A DNA stretch of 64,000 nucleotides, taken from the NCBI GenBank assembly GCA_964057225.1, contig OZ059897.1, positions 7,564,001 to 7,628,000 of the forward strand, read 5' to 3'. This stretch comes from Auanema rhodensis. Taxonomy: Eukaryota > Animalia > Nematoda. The translations under genes were made by a program, and so were the position numbers. Below are positions 1 through 46,576 of this stretch, piece by piece (the stretch's first letter is position 1; each line of letters starts with the position of its first letter). The notes under the pieces were generated by a model. That model had not been told where the DNA came from. It searched no databases and was given only the letters and a program-made list of their open reading frames with translations.

Positions 1-254
1 AATCAGATTTTCAACTACAGAGAAAATACGGAGAGCACCAGAGTCCCGATATCACACAGTAGAAGGCGGATCCATCGCCATTGGCCAAGGCATCGACCTC
101 ATTCTCACAAGTTGTCGATACGACACCGGTCGCTCTCCAAAGCCTTTCTCATTTTGCCTACATCCTCATCCTTATTCACCGCATTCTTTAACGTCTCAAC
201 ATCCCACACGTTACCAAGCACTCAAGGTTTTTTCAAACCAAGAGTTCTAGCAAG

Positions 255-3200
255 GTGGCTAAGAGATTCCATTCAGCCGTACCTATAAGTACGCATTTCG
301 ATTCCCAAGACTCAGCTCCCTTTACCAGAAGTCGAGCTCGAGCTCAAGACGTCGCTATATTAGAAGAGGAGCAGAAAGTCGACAAGAAGCCGGATAATTT
401 CCTTATTCCTACTACTGATTCTGTCTCACCTACTGAACAACTAGGCGACCCGGACTACGTACCTACTATAGAAGAAGAACTATCAATCATTGTGGAGGAA
501 CAAACACCGATCACTCCTAAAAAGGTACGCTCCTCTAATTCTAATAAAAATAAGAAAAATCAAAACATCAGCGACGCTTCTCTCTCTCTCTCACTAACTG
601 AACCAACCGATTCCCCTTTACTTTCAAAAACTTCTAGCGCGGGTGGGCTTAGTTCTCTTAGAAACATTGTTACTGATCTTTTTAACCTTTCGCCTAAAGA
701 TAAAACTTTCAACACCAAGCGCAAAAGCAGATATTCATCAGTCCCTAACATTAATATCTCACCAATTCAACCACCTGCACCAAATACCAGTATTCATCAA
801 ACTTCTACTCCCATCTTAACAACAACAGACTCACTTCCTAAGGCACCCAATAGACCTATTCCATCCACGCAAACAACCCCTATTTTGGAGACCCCACCAA
901 TAACAGGTAGAACGATCAAAATACCATCTACCCGTACGAATAACATCATGACGGAAGCTGTTTCCTCACTACCTGGGGCAGGGAAAACAACAATCGCGCA
1001 AGCCTTACTTTCGCCTTACTGTCCAACTTACGACGGCAGTCGTAACTTCCGTGATTTTACGGGTAAATTCAACTTGTTTGCTAATGCCATTGGCCTTGTT
1101 ATCCCTGAAAGGTTAGCACTTCTTCCTTTGCTTCTCAAAAATGAAGCAGCAGAAGAAGCTTACAGACAAGTTCCTGAACAACTTAAAACAACTGGTTCGT
1201 GGAATGATCTGATTAGAGCACTAACATCGAAGCTCTGCCCTGAATATAACCAAGACCCTGCACTTATTAACCTTCAAAACACCACGCAAGGGGAATTGAC
1301 AATTGATGCATACGCCCAAGCATTAAGAACAATGGCATTGAGTGCATTTGCATCTGATGACCCACATAAAGATCAAATACTGAGATCAACATTCCTCAGA
1401 GGACTTAAAAATTCTCTAAAACCAGCTGTGATCCGAGCAAAGCCAAAATCCTTCACAGAAGCGATTGAAGCAGCTCGCTGGGAGGAATCGATAGTGAACC
1501 AAACAACAGACACGCAATCGATGTTGGTCAACGCTGTGAACAAAGCACTAGCACCCTTTGCGCGTAATGATGAGAGACGAGATAGCCAAACATTTAATCG
1601 CAATTATCAACGCGATAACCAAATGATAAGAAATAATCAAAATTATCAAAATAATCAAAATTATCAAAATTATCAAAAAAATAAAAACTTTTCTAATTTC
1701 AATAATAATCGAAACCGTTACGGTTCTTTCGCTAATAATAATCGCCGTACAAATTATAACGAACAAGATAATAGGCAATCGAGTTCTGATTGGCATCAAA
1801 GAAATTATAATTTTCGTCATAACAACCAACGAGGTAGATTCAATAACAACAACGGACAAAGAAGAGTTCAATTCAAAAATCCAAGAGACAACTCAAGAGG
1901 AAGAGATAGAAGCTCAACAAGAATAAACTCGGTCACCCTTTCGCCTTTGACGCTCACAGTTATCATGGCAATAACAGCAGCAATATTCTTGCCCTGTGCA
2001 TCTACATATCAAATCTGTACAAGAGCAACAGGAGGCGCATTACTTATGCCACCAACAATCAGAAAATGCAGATTAACAGAGAAAAACCATGTGCTACGTA
2101 CAGAAGTTCATCTGTACACAAGAAATCACACAGCACACGAATGGGATGCGTGGCGTTGTTCAGAGGAAGTACACAAGTTATGCGTACGAGACCTGCTATT
2201 CCTCCGCGATACGAACAGAACAATAAATAGAATACAGCCCATAGGAGAGCGCGAATGCAGACAGGCGATCCGCGATCGCAAGTGGAATAACATAGAACTG
2301 CAACGCATTGATAGTATCACCCAAGCAACTCCGGAGCCCTCCTATGACCCAGCGCGCGCGTTCAACCGCGACGCGTGCGAGGAGCGGTCACGTCTAATAT
2401 TAGAGCGCGGAGTCATGACCCGTATGCCTGACGATACAATATTGTCAAACTTAATATTAAACACGGAAGGATGCAATGCACATCATGGTAATTGTGAATC
2501 AAGTACATCAATAATAATATGGGACCCACAAACCACTGCTTCACGTTGTAATTACATCGATATGCATACATATGACGCTATCATTAGTCAAGATACTATT
2601 TTAATCCCTAGTACACAATCGGCACTTATTCTTTCGAGCAAACCAACTCCGAAACCTATTTCTTCTTGCTTCAGGCAGCCAGCGTTCCATACGACATCAG
2701 GAAATTATATCATTCTTCCTAAATTTCCAAACGACAACAATATAACCACCCTTATTGAAAGAGAGTTCAAAAAGCTGCCGTTTAAAAGACCAAAACGTGC
2801 AGTCACCGAAGGATGTTCTTTCCCACTGGATCAAGATCGGATCAACGAAGTTGAAGATTATGAAACAGTATTGCTTCACGTCTGTCCATATACTTTCCTA
2901 AGACCATTAATGAGTAATCCCGGTATTACTTCAATTATTCCTATAATCAAAGGAAGACGTTTAGTAGATCCAACATACTCTCTAAAGGCATGGATAACAT
3001 CACATAAAGAAAAATTCGAATTTTTCTTCAGAATTCAAATAAATGAACATTCTGTTCGACATTTTCTCAAGCAATACGATTTCAGTGATAAAGAAGAAGC
3101 TCTGCTATATTATATAGCACAAAGAGAATTAGCCATTACTACAAAGGCAGCAATATCATACTTGACATCTGAACAGCTTCTCGAACAAATATCAGATCGT

Positions 3201-6200
3201 TTGACAGTAATCGAATTCGATGAAATCATAAGGAAGAAAGAAGGTTCATATCGCGAACGAATTGAAAGCATAGCTCTCAATTTAACCAATACACCAGTTA
3301 TAATTGAAGAAGGACTGACAGTTCCATCACGACAAGAAGTCCTACAAACGTTCATACAAATGCCACCAATAAGGAAACGTATACTAACTGACGAGGAAGA
3401 GAAGAAAAGCGAATTCATTAAGGCAACGATCAATTTACTAAGAGAACTAAAAACCCTCACAACAGTACGATGGAATAAAACTGCAGCATTTATTGATGAC
3501 AGAAAATTTATAAAATTGCCAGCATCACGACAATTCATGCCAAATACAGATAAACTATTTTATGACAGGAAGAATAATTATGGAATACCGATCGGTCCAC
3601 ACCCTAAGCTGATCAAGCCCAGCAATCTTTCAAAGAAATTATTATTGGAAATATTTTTACCCCTGCTCAATAATGTAAAAACACCTTATACATCGAGTAG
3701 GATAACACAAGAACAACTTCAAATCTTAATGGCAGAGAAAAATGAAACAAATTTTCGGCAAATCGCAACGCGGACATCCAGCGTCGCGGCAGGCGGCGCG
3801 GCTAGCGTCGCTGCAGGCGGCGCGGCTAGCGGCGCGGTTGTGACACCAGTCCAACCTTTGATCGAACAGAAGGGAACAATCCAATCAGTTACCACAATAC
3901 AGCCGCATATAACGAACAATCCTCACACAAATGCAACAACCACCACAAGAGCACCATCATGGAGGCAACAGCCATCAACAACGGCGCCTCACACGACCGC
4001 TGCGACAACAGCACGCACAACAACATCAACCGCTCGTTCGCCAACAACAACAAGAAGCTATGCCATATACAAAGACGCACAGATTCCAAAAATACAAGAG
4101 ACAACCGAAGCCTCTCCAACATTGATTCGAAAAAACCGAGCTTCCTCAACACCATCAGTAGAAACCTCAAATTTAGTGGAAGCAAATGCGAGATACATAG
4201 CAACGAAAATTGACTCGGTACAAGAGTTTCGTCAAAATATATCGAACAAAATAGCCCAAGATCATTTACAGTATGCTACTACAATGATCCAAGAGGAATT
4301 GCAGAAACATTTTGAAGAATCATACGAATCGATTTGCGAGATACAAAATCGGTATCTGGAATTATGGAAATCAATTCTACAAATTGAACCAACAATCGCA
4401 ATGCGAACAATACTGGGAAGAGAAGATATAGCCGCACGGTTTGTAGGCAATGAAATTTTGCATATACATGTATGCCCTACAGTGCTAGAGAAAACCATTT
4501 ATCACAATCACACCGTAAATGGCACATGCTATCTCGAAACCCCAGTCTGGACACAAGACGGACAGTTACTGTTTGCAGCACCCGGATCCAAGGATCTTTT
4601 ACCTCATGGTAAAGAAATAAGCTGTGATCACGTACCAACAGATATCTGGTCTAGCGAAGGTGAATGGAAAGGAATTAATGGGACTGCAGACGTCAATCTT
4701 GTATCAATGTGGGACGGACTTCATCACGAAAAAATAACACCATTAAAATTCACCGGAGCTCACTTATACACTAATTTATCGTCTCGTGTATACTCAATGA
4801 CCACAGCCATAGCTTACGGTGCGAGTTTAGCATCGATTCGTCAGAATCACGTTCTTCACACAATTCACAATGATCCAAAGATATCAGCTACATTCAGTGT
4901 ACTAAAGAAAAGTAGCGACTACATATCGAAAGCTCAAGAATTCACCAAGAGCACATGGAAGTCATTCATCGATACAATTGCAGGAACGATTGAGCGAACA
5001 CTAATAACGATCGGTGCAATTACATTATTTACCATCATACTCTTTGTGATAGGTTTCATTGTAAAGATCTATTTCTTCAAACCAGTAGGCATACCAGTTA
5101 TGCATATTGCACTCAAAGATCACGACAGTGATCTACCAACATACGAAGAAACTTTGGAATTAGTTAGTCATCCGGATCAACCGATTCCAAGACACATAAT
5201 GAAACAATACTATCCATCAATGCTCACATTCATACCAATCGCACTACCATTAGTTTGCTCGATTTCCAAAAAGAAAGATCAAGCACTACCACTTCTATGG
5301 ATGACTGTTAATGATAGACTGATCCTAACTTTATGGGACTCAGGTTCGTCCGTCAGTTACATAAGAATATCGACACTACACTACTTAGCTTTGAATGACT
5401 TTGTTAAGAAGAATACATTAAGAGCAACAACAGCGAACGGATCAGAATTTGTATTCATTGGTACTATCGACTTAACCGTCGAAATAGCCGGTTACGAAAT
5501 CGACCATACATTCTTCATATCAGACGACAAAGACTGTCCATCGCCAGCGTTGATTGGATTAGATTTCATGAAAACACTTGACTGTCAAAACATTGGCATG
5601 AAACTAAGACCATACAAAAGAACACTGGAAATTGGAAATCATGTAGTACCTTTGGCTAGCGGAATTAACGGGGATATTAACAGGATATCAAAAACTGTTA
5701 ATTTGATAACCTTGGAGCCGCGGAGTCTACTTCCTCGACAAGTTTTTAATTTCCAAGTCCAATTAGAGAACCCAATCGGAGAAGACTTAATCGCTATGAT
5801 TAAACCAAACGACAATACTCCTCTCTCACCTCGATACGACACAGCATTTCGCGATGTTAACTCCATCAATATCCAATTCCGGAACAATTCTAAAGAATTC
5901 ATAGAAATACCGGCCGGCACTGTGATTGCAGAAGCCGAAATAGGATCTATACCGGACTATGAAATCTTCTCAACAGAACAACAGTACGACTATATTCCAC
6001 CAGAAGCAGACTGGGAAGGCAAATTACCTCACTTCCCTGGTGATTTCATGAAAGAACTTGACCTAAAAGAGGCTGATCTTACGCAACGACAAAAAGACGA
6101 ACTACGAAACATCATTCGTCAACGTAAGAAGGCATTCCTCAATGAAGATAAAAAGATAGGATTGTTCAAAGGACCAGTAGAACACAAGATACCACTACGA

Positions 6201-8984
6201 ACGGATATGGATATGCCAAAGCCACGAATTTCACGTATACCTCTCGGGAAACAAGAAGAGGTAGAAAGACAAGTCCAAGAAATGCTCGAGCAAGGGATAA
6301 TAGAACGATCGACATCTTTGTTCAACAGCCCTGTCGTTCTCGTTAAGAAAAAAGACGAAACATTCCGTTTCGTTACGGATTTCCGAGCCTTAAATAACGT
6401 TACAAGAAAACAAACATATGTGATTCCTAACATCTCTGATATCATTGACTTAGCGGCTGGATCACAATACTTTTCTAATTTTGATCTTGTTTCTGGCTTT
6501 TTCCAAATACCATTATTGAAGAAGGATAGACCACTCACATCCTTTACCACCAATAGTGGGACTTATCAATACAGGAGAATGCCTATGGGATTATGTGGTG
6601 CGCCACATACCTTTCAAACAGCCGTGAGATATCTCCAAAGTAAATGTAAATGCCGACTATTTGTCTATTTGGACGATTTACTAGTCATATCAGACAGCGC
6701 AGAACAACACCTCGAAGACATCAAAGAAGTATTACTCGCTGTAGAAAGACTAGGATTTAAGATTAAACTCAAGAAATGTTCATTTGCAAGACCAGAAGTG
6801 AAATTTCTCGGACTCATTGTCGGAAGAGACGGAGTTAAGCCCGATCAACAGAAAGTTTCCGCCATCCGCGATTACCCTGCTCCTCAAACACCCACAGGAG
6901 TAAGAGCATTCTTAGGAATGGTCGGATTCTTTAGAAAATTTATTAAAGATTTTGCACATATAGCAAGTCCGCTGTATGACCTTACTAAGCTAGACGCAGA
7001 CTTCAATTGGACTAGCGAATGTCAACGTTCACTAGATAAGCTAAAGGAACGACTAATCGAAGCACCGGTACTGAAACCACCACGATCAGACCGAACTTTC
7101 ATCATTGAAAGTGATGGCAGCAACATCGCCATAGGCGCAGTATTACTGCAGCCCGAAGATCCAAACGAACCATTCAAGAACTTACATCCAATTGCTTTCG
7201 CAAGTAGGAAATTAGTAAAAGCAGAACGTAACTATGCTCCCATAGAGATAGAAGCCTTAGGCTTAGTTTACGCTCTAGCACAGTTTCGAACATACATACT
7301 TGGATCACATTCAATTTGCATCACCGATCATCGCCCATTGACAAGCTTACTAACTAGAAGAGACCTATTTGGAAGACTAGCAAAGTTCCAATTGGTCATA
7401 CAGGAATACGATATTGAGATCAAATATCGAGAAGGCAGATTAAACAAAGTCTGTGACGCACTCTCTAGATACATTGGAGATGAAGCTAACGATCCAAAGA
7501 CGTCGAACAAGAAACAAAAGACGAATTCGAAAGAGAAAATTGAGACACAACAAGTAAATGTTGTGAAGTTACCAGAATTCAGCTCAATCCAACAAAATAC
7601 TCCTTGGATCAAGAGAACAATAGCTGAGATTGAATACAGAACGAAGAAAAATATGATTCAAAATGATCGTTATTGTGTTATAAACAACTTACTCTACACA
7701 AAACCAAGCGTCAAAAGACCTCATCCAGCGTTAATATTGCCATCGGATAGTGATATAATTAACAAAATCATTGAAGAATTTCATGAAGACCCAACAATCG
7801 GGGCGCATCAAGGAATCAACAAAACAAAAGAAGCCATATTACGAAGATTTTCCTGGACTAACATGCAGAACGACATAGCAAAATACGTAAAACAGTGCAT
7901 CAAATGTGCACAACGAAAGAAAGATCCTCATGCTATGACCGTACAACCAATGGGTCAATTTAACATACCAACAAAACCATTTGAGAGAATACATATGGAT
8001 ATCATGGGACCATTCCCAACATCAAAAAGGAACAACAGCTATGTCCTCACAATACAAGACTCTTTCTCCAAATGGGCTACAACTATCGCCATACCAACAA
8101 TTGTTAGTGAAGTTGTCATTGATAGATTCCTCAGAAACTTTGTATATGTCTATGGACCACCGAATCGCTTAATAACAGACCGCGGTTCCAACTTCCTATC
8201 AAGGAAATTTGAAGACATGTGCGAAAAACTCGGTATCAAACATGAATCAACACTCCCACATCAGAAGAATTCCAATGGACAAGTAGAAAGACTTCATAGA
8301 ACGTTAGAAGAAGGACTAACACATTATCTCAACGAAGATGTCACTGATTGGGACATGTTTTTGCCAAAAATTACCTTTGCATTGAACACCACAACGCATG
8401 CAACCACAGGAATATCACCATACGTTGTACTATTCGGGAAAGAAAGCCGTTTGAGATTGGATAAAGATTTATACCCCGAAACAACTGAACCAAAGGAAAT
8501 TTCAAAGGAGATTGAAAATATTGAGAAAATCCGAAGCAAACAGAAAACAATCATTCAAGAAAATTTGGAAAAGCATCAAGAATTAGCAAAAAAGAAACAT
8601 GATGCTCGATTACGCACTCACGAAAGAGATATACAAGAAGGAGACTGCGTTATGTTAGCTGTGAAAATGCACAAGCCAGGACAAAAGCTTCGGAAAGCTT
8701 ATGATGGACCATTTGAAGTTATAAATGTGAAGGGAAACATGGTTCAAATCAAAAACCTTTTCGGAAAGATTCAAGACGTTCACAAGGACAATCTCAAATT
8801 ATTTAATCGAGAAACAGATGACGGAATCCCACATAAGCCCAGTACACGTACAGACAGCTCAGACGATGACAGCGATATCGAAATCATAGAGGTTATCAAC
8901 GGAAACAACAACGAGGAAGACTCTTATGACGAACCAGAAGACCTTTCGGATACAAATTGGCTACCATCAAGAAAAAACCATTAA
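255..8984 (+). CDS. E1 Gag-Env-Pol polyprotein (2909 aa from GTG; frame open from 192; first in-frame ATG ~948)
   Basis: Capsid-like YDGSRNF..F / QGELTIDAY / FLRGL motifs; protease LWDSGS (~5337); RT FVTDFRALN, FDLVSGFFQ, YLDD (~6666); RNase H IESDGS..IAFASRKL..TDHRPL..DALSR; integrase H-H-C-C, IHMDIMGP, ITDRGSNF, NGQVER, GPF. No internal stop or frameshift. Confidence 0.95.
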   Translation: MAKRFHSAVPISTHFDSQDSAPFTRSRARAQDVAILEEEQKVDKKPDNFLIPTTDSVSPTEQLGDPDYVPTIEEELSIIVEEQTPITPKKVRSSNSNKNKKNQNISDASLSLSLTEPTDSPLLSKTSSAGGLSSLRNIVTDLFNLSPKDKTFNTKRKSRYSSVPNINISPIQPPAPNTSIHQTSTPILTTTDSLPKAPNRPIPSTQTTPILETPPITGRTIKIPSTRTNNIMTEAVSSLPGAGKTTIAQALLSPYCPTYDGSRNFRDFTGKFNLFANAIGLVIPERLALLPLLLKNEAAEEAYRQVPEQLKTTGSWNDLIRALTSKLCPEYNQDPALINLQNTTQGELTIDAYAQALRTMALSAFASDDPHKDQILRSTFLRGLKNSLKPAVIRAKPKSFTEAIEAARWEESIVNQTTDTQSMLVNAVNKALAPFARNDERRDSQTFNRNYQRDNQMIRNNQNYQNNQNYQNYQKNKNFSNFNNNRNRYGSFANNNRRTNYNEQDNRQSSSDWHQRNYNFRHNNQRGRFNNNNGQRRVQFKNPRDNSRGRDRSSTRINSVTLSPLTLTVIMAITAAIFLPCASTYQICTRATGGALLMPPTIRKCRLTEKNHVLRTEVHLYTRNHTAHEWDAWRCSEEVHKLCVRDLLFLRDTNRTINRIQPIGERECRQAIRDRKWNNIELQRIDSITQATPEPSYDPARAFNRDACEERSRLILERGVMTRMPDDTILSNLILNTEGCNAHHGNCESSTSIIIWDPQTTASRCNYIDMHTYDAIISQDTILIPSTQSALILSSKPTPKPISSCFRQPAFHTTSGNYIILPKFPNDNNITTLIEREFKKLPFKRPKRAVTEGCSFPLDQDRINEVEDYETVLLHVCPYTFLRPLMSNPGITSIIPIIKGRRLVDPTYSLKAWITSHKEKFEFFFRIQINEHSVRHFLKQYDFSDKEEALLYYIAQRELAITTKAAISYLTSEQLLEQISDRLTVIEFDEIIRKKEGSYRERIESIALNLTNTPVIIEEGLTVPSRQEVLQTFIQMPPIRKRILTDEEEKKSEFIKATINLLRELKTLTTVRWNKTAAFIDDRKFIKLPASRQFMPNTDKLFYDRKNNYGIPIGPHPKLIKPSNLSKKLLLEIFLPLLNNVKTPYTSSRITQEQLQILMAEKNETNFRQIATRTSSVAAGGAASVAAGGAASGAVVTPVQPLIEQKGTIQSVTTIQPHITNNPHTNATTTTRAPSWRQQPSTTAPHTTAATTARTTTSTARSPTTTRSYAIYKDAQIPKIQETTEASPTLIRKNRASSTPSVETSNLVEANARYIATKIDSVQEFRQNISNKIAQDHLQYATTMIQEELQKHFEESYESICEIQNRYLELWKSILQIEPTIAMRTILGREDIAARFVGNEILHIHVCPTVLEKTIYHNHTVNGTCYLETPVWTQDGQLLFAAPGSKDLLPHGKEISCDHVPTDIWSSEGEWKGINGTADVNLVSMWDGLHHEKITPLKFTGAHLYTNLSSRVYSMTTAIAYGASLASIRQNHVLHTIHNDPKISATFSVLKKSSDYISKAQEFTKSTWKSFIDTIAGTIERTLITIGAITLFTIILFVIGFIVKIYFFKPVGIPVMHIALKDHDSDLPTYEETLELVSHPDQPIPRHIMKQYYPSMLTFIPIALPLVCSISKKKDQALPLLWMTVNDRLILTLWDSGSSVSYIRISTLHYLALNDFVKKNTLRATTANGSEFVFIGTIDLTVEIAGYEIDHTFFISDDKDCPSPALIGLDFMKTLDCQNIGMKLRPYKRTLEIGNHVVPLASGINGDINRISKTVNLITLEPRSLLPRQVFNFQVQLENPIGEDLIAMIKPNDNTPLSPRYDTAFRDVNSINIQFRNNSKEFIEIPAGTVIAEAEIGSIPDYEIFSTEQQYDYIPPEADWEGKLPHFPGDFMKELDLKEADLTQRQKDELRNIIRQRKKAFLNEDKKIGLFKGPVEHKIPLRTDMDMPKPRISRIPLGKQEEVERQVQEMLEQGIIERSTSLFNSPVVLVKKKDETFRFVTDFRALNNVTRKQTYVIPNISDIIDLAAGSQYFSNFDLVSGFFQIPLLKKDRPLTSFTTNSGTYQYRRMPMGLCGAPHTFQTAVRYLQSKCKCRLFVYLDDLLVISDSAEQHLEDIKEVLLAVERLGFKIKLKKCSFARPEVKFLGLIVGRDGVKPDQQKVSAIRDYPAPQTPTGVRAFLGMVGFFRKFIKDFAHIASPLYDLTKLDADFNWTSECQRSLDKLKERLIEAPVLKPPRSDRTFIIESDGSNIAIGAVLLQPEDPNEPFKNLHPIAFASRKLVKAERNYAPIEIEALGLVYALAQFRTYILGSHSICITDHRPLTSLLTRRDLFGRLAKFQLVIQEYDIEIKYREGRLNKVCDALSRYIGDEANDPKTSNKKQKTNSKEKIETQQVNVVKLPEFSSIQQNTPWIKRTIAEIEYRTKKNMIQNDRYCVINNLLYTKPSVKRPHPALILPSDSDIINKIIEEFHEDPTIGAHQGINKTKEAILRRFSWTNMQNDIAKYVKQCIKCAQRKKDPHAMTVQPMGQFNIPTKPFERIHMDIMGPFPTSKRNNSYVLTIQDSFSKWATTIAIPTIVSEVVIDRFLRNFVYVYGPPNRLITDRGSNFLSRKFEDMCEKLGIKHESTLPHQKNSNGQVERLHRTLEEGLTHYLNEDVTDWDMFLPKITFALNTTTHATTGISPYVVLFGKESRLRLDKDLYPETTEPKEISKEIENIEKIRSKQKTIIQENLEKHQELAKKKHDARLRTHERDIQEGDCVMLAVKMHKPGQKLRKAYDGPFEVINVKGNMVQIKNLFGKIQDVHKDNLKLFNRETDDGIPHKPSTRTDSSDDDSDIEIIEVINGNNNEEDSYDEPEDLSDTNWLPSRKNH
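948..1930 (+). other. gag: E1 Gag: capsid domain followed by an N/Q/R-rich low-complexity NC-like region with no CCHC knuckle
   Basis: Retrotransposon-gag-like motifs shared with E3 (P.YDG...F, EAYR, Q...S/T.....A, LRSTF..GL...., P..F.EA.E.A..EE). Boundaries approximate. Confidence 0.75.
1938..5080 (+). other. env: E1 envelope glycoprotein region (signal peptide, furin site, mucin-like tract, gB-like class III fusion core, TM anchor)
   Basis: Hydrophobic LTLTVIMAITAAIFLPCAST signal (~1938-2006); Cys-rich ectodomain with N-x-S/T sequons; KRPKR site (~2784-2798); Thr-rich tract (~3920-4050); CEIQNRYLELWKSILQIEPTIAMRTILGREDIAARFVGNEILHIHVC and CYLETPV resemble the herpesvirus gB core helix and CYSRP motif; TM ~5001-5078. 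Confidence 0.8.
5280..8984 (+). other. pol: E1 Pol: aspartic protease, reverse transcriptase, RNase H, integrase with acidic tail
   Basis: Catalytic motifs DSG, YLDD, RNase H D-E-D and integrase HHCC/DDE all present and intact. Confidence 0.95.
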
Positions 8985-9676
8985 CTCATGAGATATTATT
9001 GTAAATTGTTTTGTAATAACTTTCTTTAAAGTAATACTAGAACACAAATTTTGTAACGACTCCTCTAAAACAAGTCACTCTTAAGTCAAAAAGTAAACTA
9101 GAGCATAATGAACACGGGAAATGTGAGAAGATAATTCTTTTATCATATAGTTCGAACCTTCCTAATTTCAACTAACTTCCCCATACTAGATGAGATGAAA
9201 AATGAAAGACATAGTTTGCAACAATATCTGAGCAACAGTCTTCACTTGAGTAATCAATGACTCAATTTGGAAGTTATTTGGTATTACGCAAAACTTTTCT
9301 TTTTTTTTCTAAACTCACACAAATTGAAACAAACAACCGAGCTCTAGCAAAAAAAAATAGTTAACTTTTTATCTACACTTGTTGGAGCGCTATGCTTAAA
9401 AACTTTTTTTTTTATTTTATAAGCACGTTCGCCAATAAAACATAGTCTAGTATTCGTTAAAGAGGGTTAAAACTTTCATAATTTGGTTAAAAAATTTTTT
9501 TAATTCTTTTCAGATACTGATGTTTTATATTGTATTATGTTCATATTATAAGAATTTTACGTAAAATATTGTATTGTAACATGTACTTTAATACACACAT
9601 TAACCCTTCTGCTACAGTTAATCAAGTCAAAACTTTTGATTGTCGCGAGGACGCGACATAAACTCGAAAAAGGGCA

Positions 9677-10034
9677 CGTTCCATTCGGATGATCAATGCA
9701 TTACATTCATATGACGAAGCTGTAGCAGGCGGGTTAGAGTCAGAGAATGCGAGACTGAGAGAAGACGACCCGCCCTTTTCCATATTACAACACTTCAGCT
9801 TTGCCTCAGGGACGATCATGGATGGTTGGTCGTTCTCTCTCTGTTCTCTATTAGTTTAACCTTTACTTAGTTATATGTATCTTATTGTAATCACGTAGAT
9901 ATAATAAACCAATCTTTCTCGAGTCTTATGTTTATCCTTATGCTCCATGTTTAACCGCTACATCTGGAATACTACCACGCTCATCTTGTAGACTCCATTG
10001 GTCTGTAAGATCGACGCGGGAGCATAACGGAACG
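9677..10034 (+). repeat. E1 3' LTR (358 bp), termini CGTTCCATT...AACGGAACG
   Basis: Follows PPT + CA; both ends match the E2 5' LTR ends; terminal inverted repeat 8/9; AATAAA at 9903-9908. Confidence 0.9.
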
Positions 10035-10039
10035 ATGTA

Positions 10040-10112
10040 GCCTCGTTAGCTCAGCTGGTAAAGCGTTAGACTTTTAATCTAACGGTCAGGGGTTCGAGCC
10101 CCCTACATGGCT
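10040..10112 (+). pseudogene. Damaged first tRNA-Lys(UUU) copy
   Basis: D-stem GAGC>AAGC and 3' acceptor strand ACGGGGC>ACATGGC break pairing. Confidence 0.7.
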
Positions 10113-10298
10113 AATTTTTTTCATTCTATCTGTCCCGAACATGTAAAACTTAATTTTCTTACCTTGTTTAAACTTTTATTTATTCCAGAATCTTGAATTT
10201 TTCTTCAAATATAGATCTTTTTGAATTAAATTTAGAAGTAAATATACTATTCTATGAGTAAGTACTTCATTATTTTTATGAAATGGTGACGATATGTA

Positions 10299-10371
10299 GC
10301 CTCGTTAGCTCAGCTGGTAGAGCGTTAGACTTTTAATCTAACGGTCAGGGGTTCGAGCCCCCTACGGGGCT
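10299..10371 (+). tRNA. trnK-UUU: tRNA-Lys(UUU), consensus copy (representative of the large majority of copies)
   Basis: GCCTCGT/ACGGGGC acceptor; GCTC/GAGC D-stem; TTAGA-CTTTTAA-TCTAA anticodon arm; AGGGG-TTCGAGC-CCCCT T arm; U73; intact A and B boxes; no intron; no encoded CCA. Confidence 0.97.
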
Positions 10372-10373
10372 AA

Positions 10374-10379
10374 TTTTTT
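10374..10379 (+). terminator. RNA polymerase III oligo-T terminator (present after almost every copy)
   Basis: AA followed by T5-T7 directly after the discriminator base. Confidence 0.85.
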
Positions 10380-13300
10380 ACATTCTATCTGTCCCGAACA
10401 TGTAAAACTTAATTTTCTTACCTTGTTTGAACTTTTATTTATTCCAGAATCTTGAATTTTTCTTCAAATATAGATCTTTTTGAATTGAATTTAGAAGTAA
10501 ATATACTATTCTATGAGTAAGTACTTCATTATTTTTATGAAATGGTGACGATATGTAGCCTCGTTAGCTCAGCTGGTAGAGCGTTAGACTTTTAATCTAA
10601 CGGTCAGGGGTTCGAGCCCCCTACGGGGCTAATTTTTTTCATTCTATCTGTCCCGAAAATGTAAAACTTAATTTTCTTACCGTGTTCAAACTTTTATTTA
10701 TTCCAGAATCTTGAATTTTTCTTCAAATATAGATCTTTTTGAATTAAATTTAGAAGTAAATATAATATTGTATGAGGAAGTACTTCATTATTTTTATGAA
10801 ATGGTGACGATATGTAGCCTCGTTAGCTCAGCTGGTAGAGCGTTAGACTTTTAATCTAACGGTCAGGGGTTCGAGCCCCCTACGGGGCTAATTTTATTCA
10901 TTCTATCTGTCCCGAACATGTAAAACTTAATTTTCTTACCGTGTTCAAACTTTTATTTATTCCAGAATTTTGAATTTTTCTTCAAATATAGATCTTTTTG
11001 AATTAAATTTAGAAGTAAATATAATATTGTATGAGGAAGTACTTCATTATTTTTATGAAATGGTGACGATATGTAGCCTCTTTAGCTCAGCTGGTAGAGC
11101 GTTAGACTTTTAATCTAACGGTCAGGGGTTCGAGCCCCCTACGGGGCTAATTTTTTACATTCTATCTGTCCCGAACATGTAAAACTTAATTTTCTTACCT
11201 TGTTTGAACTTTTATTTATTCCAGAATCTTGAATTTTTCTTCAAATATAGATCTTTTTGAATTGAATTTAGAAGTAAATATACTATTCTATGAGTAAGTA
11301 CTTCATTATTTTTATGAAATGGTGACAATATGTAGCCTCGTTAGCTCAGCTGGTAGAGCGTTAGACTTTTAATCTAACGGTCAGGGGTTCGAGCCCCCTA
11401 CGGGGCTAATTTTTTTCATTCTATCTGTCCCGAACATGTAAAACTTAATTTTCTTACCTTGTTTAAACTTTCATTTATTCCAGAATCTTGAATTTTTCTT
11501 CAGATATAGATCTTTTTGAATTAAATTTAGAAGTAAATATACTATTCTATGAGTAAGTACTTCATTATTTTTATGAAATGGTGACGATATGTAGCCTCGT
11601 TAGCTCAGCTGGTAGAGCGTTAGACTTTTAATCTAACGGTCAGGGGTTCGAGCCCCCCACGGGGCTAATTTTTTACATTCTATCTGTCCCGAACATGTAA
11701 AACTTAATTTTCTTACCTTGTTTAAACTTTTATTTATTCCAGAATCTTGAATTTTTCTTCAAATATAGATCTTTTTGAATTAAATTTAGAACTAAATATA
11801 CTATTCTATGAGTAGGTACTTCATTAATTTTATGAAATGGTGACGATATGTGGCCTCGTTAGCTCAGCTGGTAGAGCGTTAGACTTTTAATCTAACGGTC
11901 AGGGGTTCGAGCCCCCTACGGGGCTAATTTGTCACATTCTATCGGTCCCGAACATGTAAAACTTAATTTTCTTACATTGTTTAAACTTTTATTTATTCCA
12001 GAATCTTGAATTTTTCTTCAAATATAGATCTTTTTGAATTAAATTTAGAAGTAAATATACTATTCTATGAGTAAGTACTTCATTATTTTTATGAAATGGT
12101 GACGATATGTAGCCTCGTTAGCTCAGCTGGTAGAGCGTTAGACTTTTAATCTAACGGTCAGGGGTTCGAGCCCCCTACGGGGCTAATTTTTTACATTCTA
12201 TCTGTCCCGAACATGTAAAACTTAATTTTCTTACCTTGTTTGAACTTTTATTTATTCCAGAATCTTGAATTTTTCTTCAAATATAGATCTTTTTGAATTG
12301 AATTTAGAAGTAAATATACGATTCTATGAGTAAGTACTTCATTATTTTTATGAAATGGTGACGATATGTAGCCTCGTTAGCTCAGCTGGTAGAGCGTTAG
12401 ACTTTTAATCTAACGGTTAGGGGTTCGAGCCCCCTACGGGGCTAATTTTTTTCATTCTATCTGTCCCGAACATGTAAAACTTAATTTTCTTACCTTGTTT
12501 AAACTTTCATTTATTCCAGAATCTTGAATTTTTCTTCAAATATAGATCTTTTTGAATTAAATTTAGAAGTAAATATACTATTCTATGAGTAAGTACTTCA
12601 TTATTTTTATGAAATGGTGACGATATGTAGCCTCGTTAGCTCAGCTGGTAGAGCGTTAGACTTTTAATCTAACGGTCAGGGGTTCGAGCCCCCCACGGGG
12701 CTAATTTTTTACATTCTATCTGTCCCGAACATGTAAAACTTAATTTTCTTACCTTGTTTAAACTTTTATTTATTCCAGAATCTTGAATTTTTCTTCAAAT
12801 ATAGATCTTTTTGAATTAAATTTAGAACTAAATATGCTATTCTATGAGTAGGTACTACATTAATTTTATGAAGTTAAGAGGATGTGTGGCCTCGTTAGCT
12901 CAGCTGGTAGAGCGTTAGACTTTTAATCTAACGGTCAGGGGTTCGAGCCCCCTACGGGGCTAATTTTTTACATTCTATCTGTCCCGAACATGTAAAACTT
13001 AATTTTCTTACCTTGTTTAAACTTTTATTTATTCCAGAATCTTGAATTTTTCTTCAAATATAGATCTTTTTGAATTAAATTTAGAAGTAAATATACTATT
13101 GTATGAGTAGGTACTTCATTATTTTTATGAAATGGCGACGATATGTAGCCTCGTTTGCTCAGCTGGTAGAGCGTTAGACTTTTAATCTAACGGTCAGGGG
13201 TTCGAGCCCCCTACGGGGCTAATTTTTAACATTCTATCTGTTCCGAACATGTAAAACTTTATTTTCTTACCTTGTTTAAACTTTTATTTATTCCAGAATC

Positions 13301-13665
13301 TTGAATTTTTCTTCAAATATAGATCTTTTTGAATTAAATTTAGAAGTAAATATACTATTGTATGAGTAGGTACTTCATTGTTTTTATGAAATGGCGACGA
13401 TATGTAGCCTCGTTAGCTCAGCTGGTAGAGCGTTAGACTTTTAATCTAACGGTCAGGGGTTCGAGCCCCCTACGGGGCTAATTTTTTACATTCTATCTGT
13501 TCCGAACATGTAAAACTTTATTTTCTTACCTTGTTTAAACTTTTATTTATTCCAGAATCTTGAATTTTTCTTCAAATATAGATCTTTTTGAATTAAATTT
13601 AGAAGTAAATATACTATTGTATGAGTAGGTACTTCATTATTTTTATGAAATGGCGACGATATGTA

Positions 13666-13738
13666 GCCTCGTTAGCTCAGCTGGTAAAGCGTTAGACTTT
13701 TAATATAACGGTCAGGGGTTCGAGCCCCCTACGGGGCT
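13666..13738 (+). pseudogene. tRNA-Lys variant with D-stem and anticodon-stem mismatches
   Basis: GGTAAAGC instead of GGTAGAGC, and TATAA instead of TCTAA. Confidence 0.6.
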
Positions 13739-16700
13739 AATTTTTTACATTCTATCTGTCCCGAACATGTAAAACTTTATTTTCTTACCTTGTTTGAACT
13801 TTCATTTATTCCAGAATCTTGAATTTTTCTTCAAATATAGATCTTTTTGAATTAAATTTAGAAGTAAATATACTATTGTATGAGTAGGTACTTCATTATT
13901 TTTATGAAATGGCGACGATATGTAGCCTCGTTAGCTCAGCTGGTAGAGCGTTAGACTTTTAATCTAACGGTCAGGGGTTCGAGCCCCCTACGGGGCTAAT
14001 TTTTAACATTCTATCTGTTCCGAACATGTAAAACTTTATATTCTTACCTTGTTTAAACTTTTATTTATTCCAGAATCTTGAATTTTTCTTCAAATATAGA
14101 TCTTTTTGAATTAAATTTAGAAATAAATATACTATTGTATGAGTAGGTACTTCATTATTTTTATGAAATGGCGACGATATGTAGCCTCGTTAGCTCAGCT
14201 GGTAGAGCGTTAGACTTTTAATCTAACGGTCAGGGGTTCGAGCCCCCTACGGGGCTAATTTTTTACATTCTATCTGTCCCGAACATGTAAAACTTTATTT
14301 TCTTACCTTGTTTGAACTTTCATTTATTCCAGAATCTTGAATTTTTCTTCAAATATAGATCTTTTTGAATTAAATTTAGAAGTAAATATACTATTGTATG
14401 AGTAGGTACTTCATTATTTTTATGAAATGGCGACGATATGTAGCCTCGTTAGCTCAGCTGGTAGAGCGTTAGACTTTTAATCTAACGGTCAGGGGTTCGA
14501 GCCCCCTACGGGGCTAATTTTTTACATTCTATCTGTCCCGAACATGTAAAACTTTATTTTCTTACCTTGTTTGAACTTTCATTTATTCCAGAATCTTGAA
14601 TTTTTCTTCAAATATAGATCTTTTTGAATTAAATTTAGAAGTAAATATACTATTGTATGAGTAGGTACTTCATTATTTTTATGAAATGGCGACGATATGT
14701 AGCCTCGTTAGCTCAGCTGGTAGAGCGTTAGACTTTTAATCTAACGGTCAGGGGTTCGAGCCCCCTACGGGGCTAATTTTTTACATTCTATCTGTTCCGA
14801 ACATGTAAAACTTTATTTTCTTACCTTGTTTAAACTTTTATTTATTCCAGAATCTTGAATTTTTCTTCAAATATAGATCTTTTTGAATTAAATTTAGAAG
14901 TAAATATACTATTGTATGAGTAGGTACTTCATTATTTTTATGAAATGGCGACGATATGTAGCCTCGTTAGCTCAGCTGGTAGAGCGTTAGACTTTTAATC
15001 TAACGGTCAGGGGTTCGAGCCCCCTACGGGGCTAATTTTTTACATTCTATCTGTCCCGAACATGTAAAACTTTATTTTCTTACCTTGTTTGAACTTTCAT
15101 TTATTCCAGAATCTTGAATTTTTCTTCAAATATAGATCTTTTTGAATTAAATTTAAAAGTAAATATACTATTCTATGAGTAGGTACTTCATTATTTTTAT
15201 GAAATGGCGACGATATGTAGCCTCGTTAGCTCAGCTGGTAGAGCGTTAGACTTTTAATCTAACGGTCAGGGGTTCGAGCCCCCTACGGGGCTAATTTTTA
15301 ACATTCTATCTGTTCCGAACATGTAAAACTTAATTTTCTTACCTTGTTTGAACTTTCATTTATTCCAGAATCTTGAATTTTTCTTCAAATATAGATCTTT
15401 TTGAATTAAATTTAAAAGTAAATATACTATTCTATGAGTAGGTACTTCATTAATTTTATGAAGTTAGGAGGATGTGTAGCCTCGTTAGCTCAGCTGGTAG
15501 AGCGTTAGACTTTTAATCTAACGGTCAGGGGTTCGAGCCCCCTACGGGGCTAATTTTTTACATTCTATCTGTCCCGAACATGTAAAACTTAATTTTCTTA
15601 CCTTGTTTAAACTTTCATTTATTCCAGAATCTTGAATTTTTCTTCAAATATAGATCTTTTTGAATTAAATTTAAAAGTAAATATACTATTCTATGAGTAG
15701 GTACTTCATTATTTTTATGAAATGGCGACGATATGTAGCCTCGTTAGCTCAGCTGGTAGAGCGTTAGACTTTTAATCTAACGGTCAGGGGTTCGAGCCCC
15801 CTACGGGGCTAATTTTTTACATTCTATCTGTCCCGAACATGTAAAACTTTATTTTCTTACCTTGTTTGAACTTTCATTTATTCCAGAATCTTGAATTTTT
15901 CTTCAAATATAGATCTTTTTGAATTAAATTTAAAAGTAAATATACTATTCTATGAGTAGGTACTTCATTAATTTTATGAAGTTAGGAGGATGTGTAGCCT
16001 CGTTAGCTCAGCTGGTAGAGCGTTAGACTTTTAATCTAACGGTCAGGGGTTCGAGACCCCTACGGGGCTAATTTTTTACATTCTATCTGTCCCGAACATG
16101 TAAAACTTAATTTTCTTACCTTGTTTAAACTTTTATTTATTCCAGAATCTTGAATTTTTCTTCAAATATAGATCTTTTTGAATTAAATTTAGAAGTAAAT
16201 ATACTATTCTATGAGTAAGTACTTCATTATTTTTATGAAATGGTGACGATATGTAGCCTCGTTAGCTCAGCTGGTAGAGCGTTAGACTTTTAATCTAACG
16301 GTCAGGGGTTCGAGCCCCCTACGGGGCTAATTTTTTACATTCTATCTGTCCCGAACATGTAAAACTTAATTTTCTTACCTTGTTTAAACTTTCATTTATT
16401 CCAGAATCTTGAATTTTTCTTCAAATATAGATCTTTTTGAATTAAATTTAGAAGTAAATATAATATTGTATGAGTAAGTACTTCATTATTTTTATGAAAT
16501 GGTGACGATATGTAGCCTCGTTAGCTCAGCTGGTAGAGCGTTAGACTTTTAATCTAACGGTCAGGGGTTCGAGCCCCCTACGGGGCTAATTTTTTACATT
16601 CTATCTGTTCCGAACATGTAAAACTTTATATTCTTACCTTGTTTAAACTTTTATTTATTCCAGAATCTTGAATTTTTCTTCAAATATAGATCTTTTTGAA

Positions 16701-19700
16701 TTAAATTTAGAAATAAATATACTATTGTATGAGTAGGTACTTCATTATTTTTATGAAATGGCGACGATATGTAGCCTCGTTAGCTCAGCTGGTAGAGCGT
16801 TAGACTTTTAATCTAACGGTCAGGGGTTCGAGCCCCCTACGGGGCTAATTTTTTACATTCTATCTGTCCCGAACATGTAAAACTTTATTTTCTTACCTTG
16901 TTTGAACTTTCATTTATTCCAGAATCTTGAATTTTTCTTCAAATATAGATCTTTTTGAATTAAATTTAGAAGTAAATATACTATTGTATGAGTAGGTACT
17001 TCATTATTTTTATGAAATGGCGACGATATGTAGCCTCGTTAGCTCAGCTGGTAGAGCGTTAGACTTTTAATCTAACGGTCAGGGGTTCGAGCCCCCTACG
17101 GGGCTAATTTTTTACATTCTATCTGTCCCGAACATGTAAAACTTTATTTTCTTACCTTGTTTGAACTTTCATTTATTCCAGAATCTTGAATTTTTCTTCA
17201 AATATAGATCTTTTTGAATTAAATTTAGAAGTAAATATACTATTGTATGAGTAGGTACTTCATTATTTTTATGAAATGGCGACGATATGTAGCCTCGTTA
17301 GCTCAGCTGGTAGAGCGTTAGACTTTTAATCTAACGGTCAGGGGTTCGAGCCCCCTACGGGGCTAATTTTTTACATTCTATCTGTTCCGAACATGTAAAA
17401 CTTTATTTTCTTACCTTGTTTAAACTTTTATTTATTCCAGAATCTTGAATTTTTCTTCAAATATAGATCTTTTTGAATTAAATTTAGAAGTAAATATACT
17501 ATTGTATGAGTAGGTACTTCATTATTTTTATGAAATGGCGACGATATGTAGCCTCGTTAGCTCAGCTGGTAGAGCGTTAGACTTTTAATCTAACGGTCAG
17601 GGGTTCGAGCCCCCTACGGGGCTAATTTTTTACATTCTATCTGTCCCGAACATGTAAAACTTTATTTTCTTACCTTGTTTGAACTTTCATTTATTCCAGA
17701 ATCTTGAATTTTTCTTCAAATATAGATCTTTTTGAATTAAATTTAAAAGTAAATATACTATTCTATGAGTAGGTACTTCATTATTTTTATGAAATGGCGA
17801 CGATATGTAGCCTCGTTAGCTCAGCTGGTAGAGCGTTAGACTTTTAATCTAACGGTCAGGGGTTCGAGCCCCCTACGGGGCTAATTTTTAACATTCTATC
17901 TGTTCCGAACATGTAAAACTTAATTTTCTTACCTTGTTTGAACTTTCATTTATTCCAGAATCTTGAATTTTTCTTCAAATATAGATCTTTTTGAATTAAA
18001 TTTAAAAGTAAATATACTATTCTATGAGTAGGTACTTCATTAATTTTATGAAGTTAGGAGGATGTGTAGCCTCGTTAGCTCAGCTGGTAGAGCGTTAGAC
18101 TTTTAATCTAACGGTCAGGGGTTCGAGCCCCCTACGGGGCTAATTTTTTACATTCTATCTGTCCCGAACATGTAAAACTTAATTTTCTTACCTTGTTTAA
18201 ACTTTTATTTATTCCAGAATCTTGAATTTTTCTTCAAATATAGATCTTTTTGAATTAAATTTAGAAGTAAATATACTATTCTATGAGTAAGTACTTCATT
18301 ATTTTTATGAAATGGTGACGATATGTAGCCTCGTTAGCTCAGCTGGTAGAGCGTTAGACTTTTAATCTAACGGTCAGGGGTTCGAGCCCCCTACGGGGCT
18401 AATTTTTTACATTCTATCTGTCCCGAACATGTAAAACTTAATTTTCTTACCTTGTTTAAACTTTTATTTATTCCAGAATCTTGAATTTTTCTTCAAATAT
18501 AGATCTTTTTGAATTAAATTTAGAAGTAAATATAATATTGTATGAGTAAGTACTTCATTATTTTTATGAAATGGTGACGATATGTAGCCTCGTTAGCTCA
18601 GCTGGTAGAGCGTTAGACTTTTAATCTAACGGTCAGGGGTTCGAGCCCCCTACGGGGCTAATTTTTTACATTCTATCTGTCCCGAACATGTAAAACTTAA
18701 TTTTCTTACCTTGTTTAAACTTTTATTTATTCCAGAATCTTGAATTTTTCTTCAAATATAGATCTTTTTGAATTAAATTTAGAAGTAAATATACTATTCT
18801 ATGAGTAAGTACTTCATTATTTTTATGAAATGGTGACGATATGTAGCCTCGTTAGCTCAGCTGGTAGAGCGTTAGACTTTTAATCTAACGGTCAGGGGTT
18901 CGAGCCCCCTACGGGGCTAATTTTTTACATTCTATCTGTCCCGAACATGTAAAACTTAATTTTCTTACCTTGTTTAAACTTTTATTCATTCCAGAATCTT
19001 GAATTTTTCTTCAAATATAGATCTTTTTGAATTAAATTTAGAAGTAAATATACTATTCTATGAGTAAGTACTTCATTATTTTTATGAAATGGTGACGATA
19101 TGTAGCCTCGTTAGCTCAGCTGGTAGAGCGTTAGACTTTTAATCTAACGGTCAGGGGTTCGAGCCCCCTACGGGGCTAATTTTTTACATTCTATCTGTCC
19201 CGAACATGTAAAACTTAATTTTCTTACCTTGTTTAAACTTTTATTTATTCCAGAATCTTGAATTTTTCTTCAAATATAGATCTTTTTGAATTAAATTTAG
19301 AAGTAAATATACTATTGTATGAGTAGGTACTTCATTATTTTTATGAAATGGCGACGATATGTAGCCTCGTTAGCTCAGCTGGTAGAGCGTTAGACTTTTA
19401 ATCTAACGGTCAGGGGTTCGAGCCCCCTACGGGGCTAATTTTTTACATTCTATCTGTCCCGAACATGTAAAACTTTATTTTCTTACCTTGTTTGAACTTT
19501 CATTTATTCCAGAATCTTGAATTTTTCTTCAAATATAGATCTTTTTGAATTAAATTTAGAAGTAAATATACTATTCTATGAGTAAGTACTTCATTATTTT
19601 TATGAAATGGTGACGATATGTAGCCTCGTTAGCTCAGCTGGTAGAGCGTTAGACTTTTAATCTAACGGTCAGGGGTTCGAGCCCCCTACGGGGCTAATTT

Positions 19701-22700
19701 TTTACATTCTATCTGTCCCGAACATGTAAAACTTAATTTTCTTACCTTGTTTAAACTTTTATTTATTCCAGAATCTTGAATTTTTCTTCAAATATAGATC
19801 TTTTTGAATTAAATTTAGAAGTAAATATACTATTGTATGAGTAGGTACTTCATTATTTTTATGAAATGGCGACGATATGTAGCCTCGTTAGCTCAGCTGG
19901 TAGAGCGTTAGACTTTTAATCTAACGGTCAGGGGTTCGAGCCCCCTACGGGGCTAATTTTTTACATTCTATCTGTCCCGAACATGTAAAACTTTATTTTC
20001 TTACCTTGTTTGAACTTTCATTTATTCCAGAATCTTGAATTTTTCTTCAAATATAGATCTTTTTGAATTAAATTTAGAAGTAAATATACTATTGTATGAG
20101 TAGGTACTTCATTATTTTTATGAAATGGCGACGATATGTAGCCTCGTTAGCTCAGCTGGTAGAGCGTTAGACTTTTAATCTAACGGTCAGGGGTTCGAGC
20201 CCCCTACGGGGCTAATTTTTTACATTCTATCTGTTCCGAACATGTAAAACTTCATTTTCTTACCTTGTTTAAACTTTTATTTATTCCAGAATCTTGAATT
20301 TTTCTTCAAATATAGATCTTTTTGAATTAAATTTAGAAGTAAATATACTATTGTATGAGTAGGTACTTCATTATTTTTATGAAATGGCGACGATATGTAG
20401 CCTCGTTAGCTCAGCTGGTAGAGCGTTAGACTTTTAATCTAACGGTCAGGGGTTCGAGCCCCCTACGGGGCTAATTTTTTACATTCTATCTGTCCCGAAC
20501 ATGTAAAACTTAATTTTTATACCTTGTTCAAACTTTTATTTATTCCAGAATCTTGAATTTTTCTTCAAATATAGATCTTTTTGAATTAAATTTAGAAGTA
20601 AATATACTATTCTATGAGTAAGTACTTCATTATTTTTATGAAATGGTGACGATATGTAGCCTCGTTAGCTCAGCTGGTAGAGCGTTAGACTTTTAATCTA
20701 ACGGTCAGGGGTTCGAGCCCCCTACGGGGCTAATTTTTTACATTCTATCTGTCCCGAACATGTAAAACTTAATTTTCTTACCTTGTTTAAACTTTTATTT
20801 ATTCCAGAATCTTGAATTTTTCTTCAAATATAGATCTTTTTGAATTAAATTTAGAAGTAAATATAATATTGTATGAGTAAGTACTTCATTATTTTTATGA
20901 AATGGTGACGATATGTAGCCTCGTTAGCTCAGCTGGTAGAGCGTTAGACTTTTAATCTAACGGTCAGGGGTTCGAGCCCCCTACGGGGCTAATTGTTTAC
21001 ATTCTATCTGTCCCGAACATGTAAAACTTAATTTTCTTACCTTGTTTAAACTTTTATTTATTCCAGAATCTTGAATTTTTCTTCAAATATAGATCTTTTT
21101 GAATTAAATTTAGAAGTAAATATACTATTCTATGAGTAAGTACTTCATTATTTTTATGAAATGGTGACGATATGTAGCCTCGTTAGCTCAGCTGGTAGAG
21201 CGTTAGACTTTTAATCTAACGGTCAGGGGTTCGAGCCCCCTACGGGGCTAATTTTTTACATTCTATCTGTCCCGAACATGTAAAACTTAATTTTCTTACC
21301 TTGTTTAAACTTTTATTCATTCCAGAATCTTGAATTTTTCTTCAAATATAGATCTTTTTGAATTAAATTTAGAAGTAAATATACTATTGTATGAGTAGGT
21401 ACTTCATTATTTTTATGAAATGGCGACGATATGTAGCCTCGTTAGCTCAGCTGGTAGAGCGTTAGACTTTTAATCTAACGGTCAGGGGTTCGAGCCCCCT
21501 ACGGGGCTAATTTTTTACATTCTATCTGTCCCGAACATGTAAAACTTAATTTTCTTACCTTGTTTAAACTTTTATTTATTCCAGAATCTTGAATTTTTCT
21601 TCAAATATAGATCTTTTTGAATTAAATTTAGAAGTAAATATAATATTGTATGAGTAAGTACTTCATTATTTTTATGAAATGGTGACGATATGTAGCCTCG
21701 TTAGCTCAGCTGGTAGAGCGTTAGACTTTTAATCTAACGGTCAGGGGTTCGAGCCCCCTACGGGGCTAATTTTTTACATTCTATCTGTCCCGAACATGTA
21801 AAACTTAATTTTCTTACCTTGTTTAAACTTTTATTTATTCCAGAATCTTGAATTTTTCTTCAAATATAGATCTTTTTGAATTAAATTTAGAAGTAAATAT
21901 ACTATTCTATGAGTAAGTACTTCATTATTTTTATGAAATGGTGACGATATGTAGCCTCGTTAGCTCAGCTGGTAGAGCGTTAGACTTTTAATCTAACGGT
22001 CAGGGGTTCGAGCCCCCTACGGGGCTAATTTTTTACATTCTATCTGTCCCGAACATGTAAAACTTAATTTTCTTACCTTGTTTAAACTTTTATTCATTCC
22101 AGAATCTTGAATTTTTCTTCAAATATAGATCTTTTTGAATTAAATTTAGAAGTAAATATACTATTGTATGAGTAGGTACTTCATTATTTTTATGAAATGG
22201 CGACGGTATGTAGCCTAGTTAGCTCAGCTGGTAGAGCGTTAGACTTTTAATCTAACGGTCAGGGGTTCGAGCCCCCTACGGGGCTAATTTTTAACATTCT
22301 ATCTGTCCCGAACATGTAAAACTTAATTTTCTTACCTTGTTTAAACTTTTATTTATTCCAGAATCTTGAATTTTTCTTCAAATATAGATCTTTTTGAATT
22401 AAATTTAGAAGTAAATATACTATTCTATGAGTAAGTACTTCATTATTTTTATGAAATGGTGACGATATGTAGCCTCGTTAGCTCAGCTGGTAGAGCGTTA
22501 GACTTTTAATCTAACGGTCAGGGGTTCGAGCCCCCTACGGGGCTAATTTTTTACATTCTATCTGTTCCGAACATGTAAAACTTCATTTTCTTACCTTGTT
22601 TAAACTTTTATTTATTCCAGAATCTTGAATTTTTCTTCAAATATAGATCTTTTTGAATTAAATTTAGAAGTAAATATACTATTCTATGAGTAAGTACTTC

Positions 22701-31700: not shown

Positions 31701-32054
31701 TTCAAATATAGATCTTTTTGAATTAAATTTAGAAGTAAATATACTATTCTATGAGTAAGTACTTCATTATTTTTATGAAATGGTGACGATATGTAGCCTC
31801 GTTAGCTCAGCTGGTAGAGCGTTAGACTTTTAATCTAACGGTCAGGGGTTCGAGCCCCCTACGGGGCTAATTTTTTACATTCTATCTGTTCCGAACATGT
31901 AAAACTTCATTTTCTTACCTTGTTTAAACTTTTATTTATTCCAGAATCTTGAATTTTTCTTCAAATATAGATCTTTTTGAATTAAATTTAGAAGTAAATA
32001 TACTATTCTATGAGTAAGTACTTCATTATTTTTATGAAATGGTGGCGATGTGTA

Positions 32055-32127
32055 GCCTCGTTAGCTCAGCTGGTAGAGCGTTAGATTTTTAATCTAACGG
32101 TCAGGGGTTCGAGCCCCCTACGGGGCT
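32055..32127 (+). pseudogene. tRNA-Lys variant C32>T creating an internal T5 run
   Basis: TTAGATTTTTAATC; an internal T5 is expected to terminate Pol III. Confidence 0.5.
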
Positions 32128-43263: not shown

Positions 43264-43269
43264 AATTTT

Positions 43270-46562: not shown

Positions 46563-46576
46563 GGCAACGATATGTA

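Follow-up and report, generated by a model that had tools for sequence, protein, structure and literature searches.

Three LTR retrotransposons in a tRNA-Lys array

The window, that is, the whole stretch of 64,000 nucleotides of Auanema rhodensis DNA analysed here, holds a tandem tRNA-Lys(TTT) array and three LTR retrotransposons (E1, E2 and E3). E1 occupies 1-10034, E2 (minus strand) 43271-46562 and E3 50372-62680, and these three stretches break the array. The features on which the analysis rests are the following:

192..8984, + strand: E1 open frame of 2930 aa from stop to stop, without interruption; the 5' end of the element lies outside the window
8265..8267, + strand: Lys codon of the E1 integrase, aligned with Pro214 of the PFV integrase
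9666..9674, + strand: E1 polypurine tract, followed by a CA spacer (9675-9676) and then the LTR
9677..10034, + strand: E1 3' LTR, 358 bp, CGTTCC...GGAACG, whose terminal 6 bp form a perfect inverted repeat
10035..64000, + strand: host target, the tandem tRNA-Lys(TTT) array, 149 genes, 259-bp unit, interrupted by E2 and E3
43271..43586, - strand: E2 3' LTR, beginning with CG; its final 21 bp and part of an array unit are gone
43587..46213, - strand: E2 interior, 2.6 kb, with remnants only of an E1-like gag start and pol end
46214..46225, - strand: E2 primer-binding site, directly after CG (GGAACG, then TGG), tRNA-Gln type of Caenorhabditis elements, 12/12
46226..46562, - strand: E2 5' LTR, 337 bp, CG...CG, 81% identity to the E1 LTR
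50368..50371, + strand: E3 left target-site duplication, 4 bp, AATA
50372..50787, + strand: E3 5' LTR, 416 bp, TG...CG (TGTTAC...GGAACG)
50788..50799, + strand: E3 primer-binding site of the tRNA-Gln type, 11/12, beginning right behind CG
51931..61233, + strand: E3 open frame of 3100 aa from stop to stop, without interruption, domain order as in E1; integrase Lys at about 60004-60006
62265..62680, + strand: E3 3' LTR, identical to the 5' LTR, TG...CG
62681..62684, + strand: E3 right target-site duplication, 4 bp, AATA

A domain search placed gag, a gB-like env, protease, reverse transcriptase (RT), RNase H and integrase, in this order, along the E1 frame. The pol order protease-RT-RNase H-integrase of Ty3/gypsy elements (Metaviridae) is present in both E1 and E3, as is a DDE integrase with a zinc finger (PF17921, PF00665), and their pol groups with nematode elements in an integrase tree built without the sequences of PMC13524379. 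The env between gag and pol was recognised by PF24664 (above cut-off in E1) and PF00606 (below cut-off in E1 and E3), and this region is homologous to Caenorhabditis proteins. TG...CA ends, which are usual for Ty3/gypsy but do not define it, are absent here; the family includes other exceptions (PMC3601003, Table 3). The polyproteins of E1 and E3 are 38% identical. The env regions of E1 (about 3700-4200) and E3 (55400-55900) contain a long Thr/Pro/Ser-rich, mucin-like stretch within the gB-like domain, and downstream of the E3 polyprotein the 3' untranslated part holds a 207-codon stop-to-stop frame (61362-61985).

E3 alone has the complete set of paired LTRs, primer site, polypurine tract (a short purine run) and duplication, while E1 and E2 are partial. 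Its identical LTRs, clean duplication and open frame show that it is young. For E1, the 5' LTR, primer site and target-site duplication fall outside the window. Because the last 21 bp are missing from the U5 side of its 3' LTR, E2 lacks a duplication, and its U5 boundary is supported by the junction with the primer site and by the comparison with E1. At 3.3 kb and non-coding, E2 looks like a non-autonomous derivative. Close E2 copies cover all 30 bins in four public sequencing runs, so E2 looks like a non-autonomous family; these copies carry a 36-bp and a 12-bp stretch that are absent from the window copy.

Large tRNA arrays have been reported for Auanema (bioRxiv 10.64898/2026.08.27.747507). 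In the tRNA-Lys array, a few upstream variants account for 56, 48, 28 and 6 of the 146 units scored, and the E2 host flank at 46563-46569 differs from every common array variant at its fourth base. The distance from the insertion to the downstream tRNA gene is 5, 14 and 91 bp (from window positions 10035, 46563 and 62681, respectively). That two of three insertions lie at most 15 bp before a tRNA gene has a p of about 0.01-0.02, a value to be read with the post hoc choice of the 15-bp limit, the few insertions and the location of other junctions outside the tRNA-Lys array. These two insertions lie close to where Pol III transcription probably starts, as Ty3 insertions do, although the numbers are weak.

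The CG termini of the LTRs

The first-pass annotation had described the LTRs of E1 and E2 as CGTTCC...GGAACG and those of E3 as TGTTAC...GGAACG. The E1/E2 reading was confirmed on the E1 3' LTR and the complete E2 5' LTR, and the E3 reading on two identical LTRs of 416 bp. The same annotation held that the ends were fixed independently by the primer-site junction, the polypurine-tract junction, the comparison between LTRs and the E3 duplication. E3 has all four kinds of evidence; for E1 neither primer site nor duplication lies in the window, and E2 has no duplication. Counted inwards from the 3' terminus, the nearest CA is 10 nt away in E1 and E2 and 20 nt away in E3, and therefore a small shift of the boundary cannot yield a CA end. 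The E1 and E3 LTRs show no significant similarity (best E 2.6), yet they share their last six bases, for which base composition gives a chance of about 3e-5. GGAACG followed by TGG is common to elements with 38% protein identity and unrelated LTR interiors. In each of the three elements, the purine tract is separated from the LTR by a CA spacer (9675-9676, 43587-43588 and 62263-62264). With this spacer, the cDNA could carry C-purine-TG at both ends until it is trimmed.

The E3 target is AT-rich, and its duplication can be read as 4 bp, with the LTR starting at TG, or as 5 bp, with the LTR starting one base later. Every register that respects the identity between the two LTRs ends at the CG at 62680; the 5' LTR rules out any that would end later. 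The 5-bp reading is not preferred, as a site outside the window gives 4 bp (see below) and the spacer after the purine tract lines up with TG. Decay of CpG was also considered as the source of the E3 TG and was rejected, since CpG is not depleted in the window (observed/expected 0.85-1.06).

Further copies were sought in public sequencing data. The E1 end is present in eleven public runs of three studies, six of which were examined (X1, X2, X3, X4, X7 and X8). The E1 LTR was compared with contigs of X1, X2, X4 and X7 (15 of 31 loose contig ends listed), and the E2 interior with both LTR ends was compared with contigs of X2, X7, X8 and X3 (24 of 72 loose ends listed). X1 gave one contig only, on the tRNA part. 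X2 may be the source sample, and one of its contigs covers 9665-10076 without a single difference. One X7 contig is identical to the E1 LTR and continues into a different flank from two bases after the CG, and an X4 contig presents, in order, the tract, a CG start, a different LTR interior, a CG end and the primer site. Among the loose ends listed, long X2 and X7 contigs cease to match at precisely 10034. At the terminal positions of the E1 LTR, the list of differences, which covers differences away from contig ends, has no other letter.

For E2, contigs break precisely at the U5 CG (46226) in all four runs (6 contigs, with two variants of one flank) and precisely at the U3 CG (43586) in two of the four (5 contigs), again among the loose ends listed. 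Read along the element, CTTG is both the end of the U3 host flank and the start of the U5 host flank, at a site that is absent from the window. CTTG is thus a candidate 4-bp duplication, and we infer that the two outside junctions belong to one insertion. The independent host sites come to about five, of which only that of E3 has its two flanks together in a single piece. Further LTR subtypes in X2, X4, X7, X8 and X3 share only the first 13 or the last 15 bases with E1/E2 (window 9689 and 46240), which shows that the CG-ended signal is retained while LTR interiors turn over. Collecting more copies had been proposed as a check, with CA-ended copies as the outcome that would count against CG ends; among the loose ends listed, contigs break at CG ends in four runs.

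We regard the CG ends as confirmed. That they arise from misplaced boundaries, an assembly error or mutation after insertion is highly improbable: the AT-rich E3 target does permit several duplication registers, and the window contains no duplications for E1 and E2, but all 3' ends are without a CA within 10 nt, the ends agree between 5' and 3' LTRs and across the three elements, and contigs from several runs agree and break at CG. As far as the duplications show, these ends were made by integrase.

Integrase and the joining of CG ends

Aligning the integrase residues that contact the LTR end had also been proposed as a check, and it brought out a difference: in both E1 and E3, the position of PFV Pro214 is occupied by Lys instead of Pro. 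In the PFV integrase, Pro214-Gly218 forms a wedge between the DNA strands and is stacked on adenine (PMC6784120), although the contacts of residues 212-214 are described as van der Waals only, with the removed dinucleotide (PMC3395085). Among 270 proteins, 264 cover this loop, with Pro in 208, His in 24, Lys in 15, Ser in 7 and other residues in 10. All 15 Lys-bearing proteins fall within one clade of 16 tips (FastTree, midpoint root, support 0.95), which is nested among His-bearing nematode elements and whose named members are rhabditid nematodes without exception. The nearest integrases are those of Auanema (54-72% identical), followed by Caenorhabditis, Diploscapter and Heterorhabditis. His at the position of PFV Asn224 was considered as a marker of the clade and discarded, as it is not clade-specific (32/118).

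DNA of the Lys clade was also looked for outside the host. In viral contigs, the E1 integrase found no match, query A3 found one distant locus and query A4 none; metagenomes gave 80 loci, all of them 42% identical or less, and prokaryote genomes gave 16 weak matches (28-38%); none of this DNA belonged to a Lys-clade relative. Of 81 loci (L001-L081), 18 had long direct repeats, most of them truncated by the end of a contig. A TG or CA end was readable at five of the 81, four of which also had a readable loop, and these four distant loci keep Pro, which makes for a small control only. The structure predicted by AlphaFold for the E1 integrase (mean pLDDT 59.5, with loop residues 202-214 under 50) is uninformative on the loop, and the fold search confirmed an integrase and nothing more.

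From the alignment, Lys in the end-binding loop possibly helps the use of CG. Against a causal link, Pro is missing more widely than the Lys clade, namely in sister nematode elements with His or Ser, and the RSV integrase has Ser at the loop Pro position and uses CA ends (PMC7955051). For one residue on one clade, shared ancestry alone is a sufficient explanation.

The first-pass annotation had attributed the CG ends to an integrase lineage with altered end specificity. The part of this proposal that stands is that G-ended DNA is joined, as the ends and duplications show; altered specificity is too strong a term, as E3 was joined through CA-3' at its U3 terminus and through CG-3' at its U5 terminus. 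Such a mixed pair in a single element favours relaxed (C-purine) over switched recognition. On balance, we therefore lean towards a nematode-type Ty3/gypsy family (gag-env-pol) with CG-ended LTRs, whose integrase is likely able to join 3' ends of either C-purine type (CG or CA) and may be helped in this by Lys. During reverse transcription, U5 and U3 each have a different LTR as template, so that the two ends can change separately. The tRNA-Gln would prime directly at the U5 CG, and the polypurine tract would leave the two-base CA spacer at U3, to be trimmed by integrase before concerted joining with a 4-bp stagger. Within the signal TGTT...AACA reported for metazoan LTR ends (PMC3601003, Table 3), only the outermost base pair would have changed (A:T to G:C), with the penultimate C retained. 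The U5 CG, found in E1/E2 and E3, probably came first, and the U3 CG, found in E1/E2 only, later.

A less probable reading, though one to be taken seriously, is that the integrase is ordinary and that most enzymes of this kind would accept the change of the last base from A to G, which then drifted to fixation, with Lys as an unrelated marker of the clade. It needs a single transition per end with the penultimate C kept, and it agrees with the use of CA by RSV in spite of the missing Pro, with the loss of Pro across a wider nematode group and with the numerous other non-TG..CA ends that exist; moreover, where CpG is not depleted, nothing erodes a CG end. General tolerance, however, predicts that CG ends should be common, and none is among the motifs named in the available text of a survey of 50 plants (bioRxiv 10.1101/137141). 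The U5 CG also persisted between E1/E2 and E3 while the remaining LTR diverged beyond alignment. That the integrase instead prefers CG, the TG start of E3 being a tolerated relic or the product of recombination, would suit the five of six end types that are CG in the three elements, the perfect CG-ended inverted repeats of E1/E2 and the further LTR subtypes that start or end likewise; we nevertheless consider it improbable, because the young E3 was joined with a CA end.

A broader reading is put forward tentatively, and we rate it as rather unlikely: CG ends and the Lys loop would together mark an entire clade of env-bearing elements in rhabditid nematodes (Auanema, Caenorhabditis, Diploscapter and Heterorhabditis), in which integrase would have co-evolved to read the last G, with E3 as a TG...CG intermediate. 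If true, this clade would be a natural and active exception to the rule of the invariant CA, standing beside the best-studied intasomes.

Comparison with known elements

Ends outside the TG..CA rule are known in plants, among them Tos17, TARE1, AtRE1 and TGTT/AACA (bioRxiv 10.1101/137141, PMC5659011), for which some authors likewise proposed divergence of the integrase (PMC5659011), as well as in the Drosophila Zam group (AG...YT; PMC3601003) and in the diatom elements CoDi3.2, CoDi4.2 and CoDi4.3 (PMC2806351). Like E1-E3, these are genuine LTR ends. Unlike E1-E3, they belong mostly to copia or insect gypsy elements, and the motifs named in the sources at hand neither start with C nor end in CG; E1-E3, for their part, differ by one transition per end within the metazoan signal. 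The first T, which the plant survey called invariable (bioRxiv 10.1101/137141), is broken by E1 and E2. Nematode elements with CG ends are not described in the literature searched, where motif spellings vary and key papers were covered in part, nor are such ends mentioned in the available parts of PMC7084138 and PMC13332604. Both the exceptions to TG..CA and the element group are thus already known, and what appears to be new is the CG ends in nematode gag-env-pol elements.

The earlier expectation that LTR finders requiring TG..CA would miss the family holds for a strict filter, which misses all three elements. Allowing one mismatch would pass E3 only, judging from the options described in bioRxiv 10.1101/137141, and the group itself has been found by homology and self-BLAST (PMC13524379). 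For the annotation of nematode repeats, CG...CG and TG...CG with 4-bp duplications are motifs to be allowed. In the chemistry of retroviral integrases, CA is regarded as an invariant part of the LTR end (PMC6784120, PMC3395085). A young family that cleanly joins CG, a sister whose two ends differ (CA and CG), and a candidate residue together make the reason for the conservation of CA testable.

Nematode gag-env-pol elements with a gB-type env have already been described, together with the cysteine bridges and trimer fold of their Env (PMC13524379). E1 and E3 resemble them in the gag-env-pol order and the gB-like env, and E2 and E3 in the primer site abutting the LTR. The tRNA-Gln type is found in eight of 30 nematode rows of supplementary file 1 (30 of 36 rows considered), two of them identical to the 12 nt of E2; for the elements in these 30 rows, and in the parts of PMC13524379 available, no terminal dinucleotides, duplications, CG ends or insertions into tRNA arrays are given. 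Cer1 of Caenorhabditis elegans is likewise a nematode Ty3/gypsy element with a single long frame and a primer site adjacent to the 5' LTR (PMC3315495), but its primer site is of the tRNA-Pro type (PMC3315495, PMC10309623), unlike the tRNA-Gln type of E2 and E3, and it has been classed among the non-env elements (PMC13524379). The label "Cer1-like" was dropped because of the different primer site.

Among solved structures, the integrases of Ty3 and PFV are the best matches both by sequence (E 4.5e-26 and 2.4e-23, respectively) and by fold, and both keep the loop Pro, unlike E1 and E3 with their Lys. The ends of Ty3 are CA. Those of PFV are CA as well (PMC6784120, PMC3395085), in contrast to the CG found here, and PFV trims only U5 (PMC6784120), whereas the spacer of E1, E2 and E3 lies at U3. 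Ty3 also targets tRNA genes (title of 7q5b).
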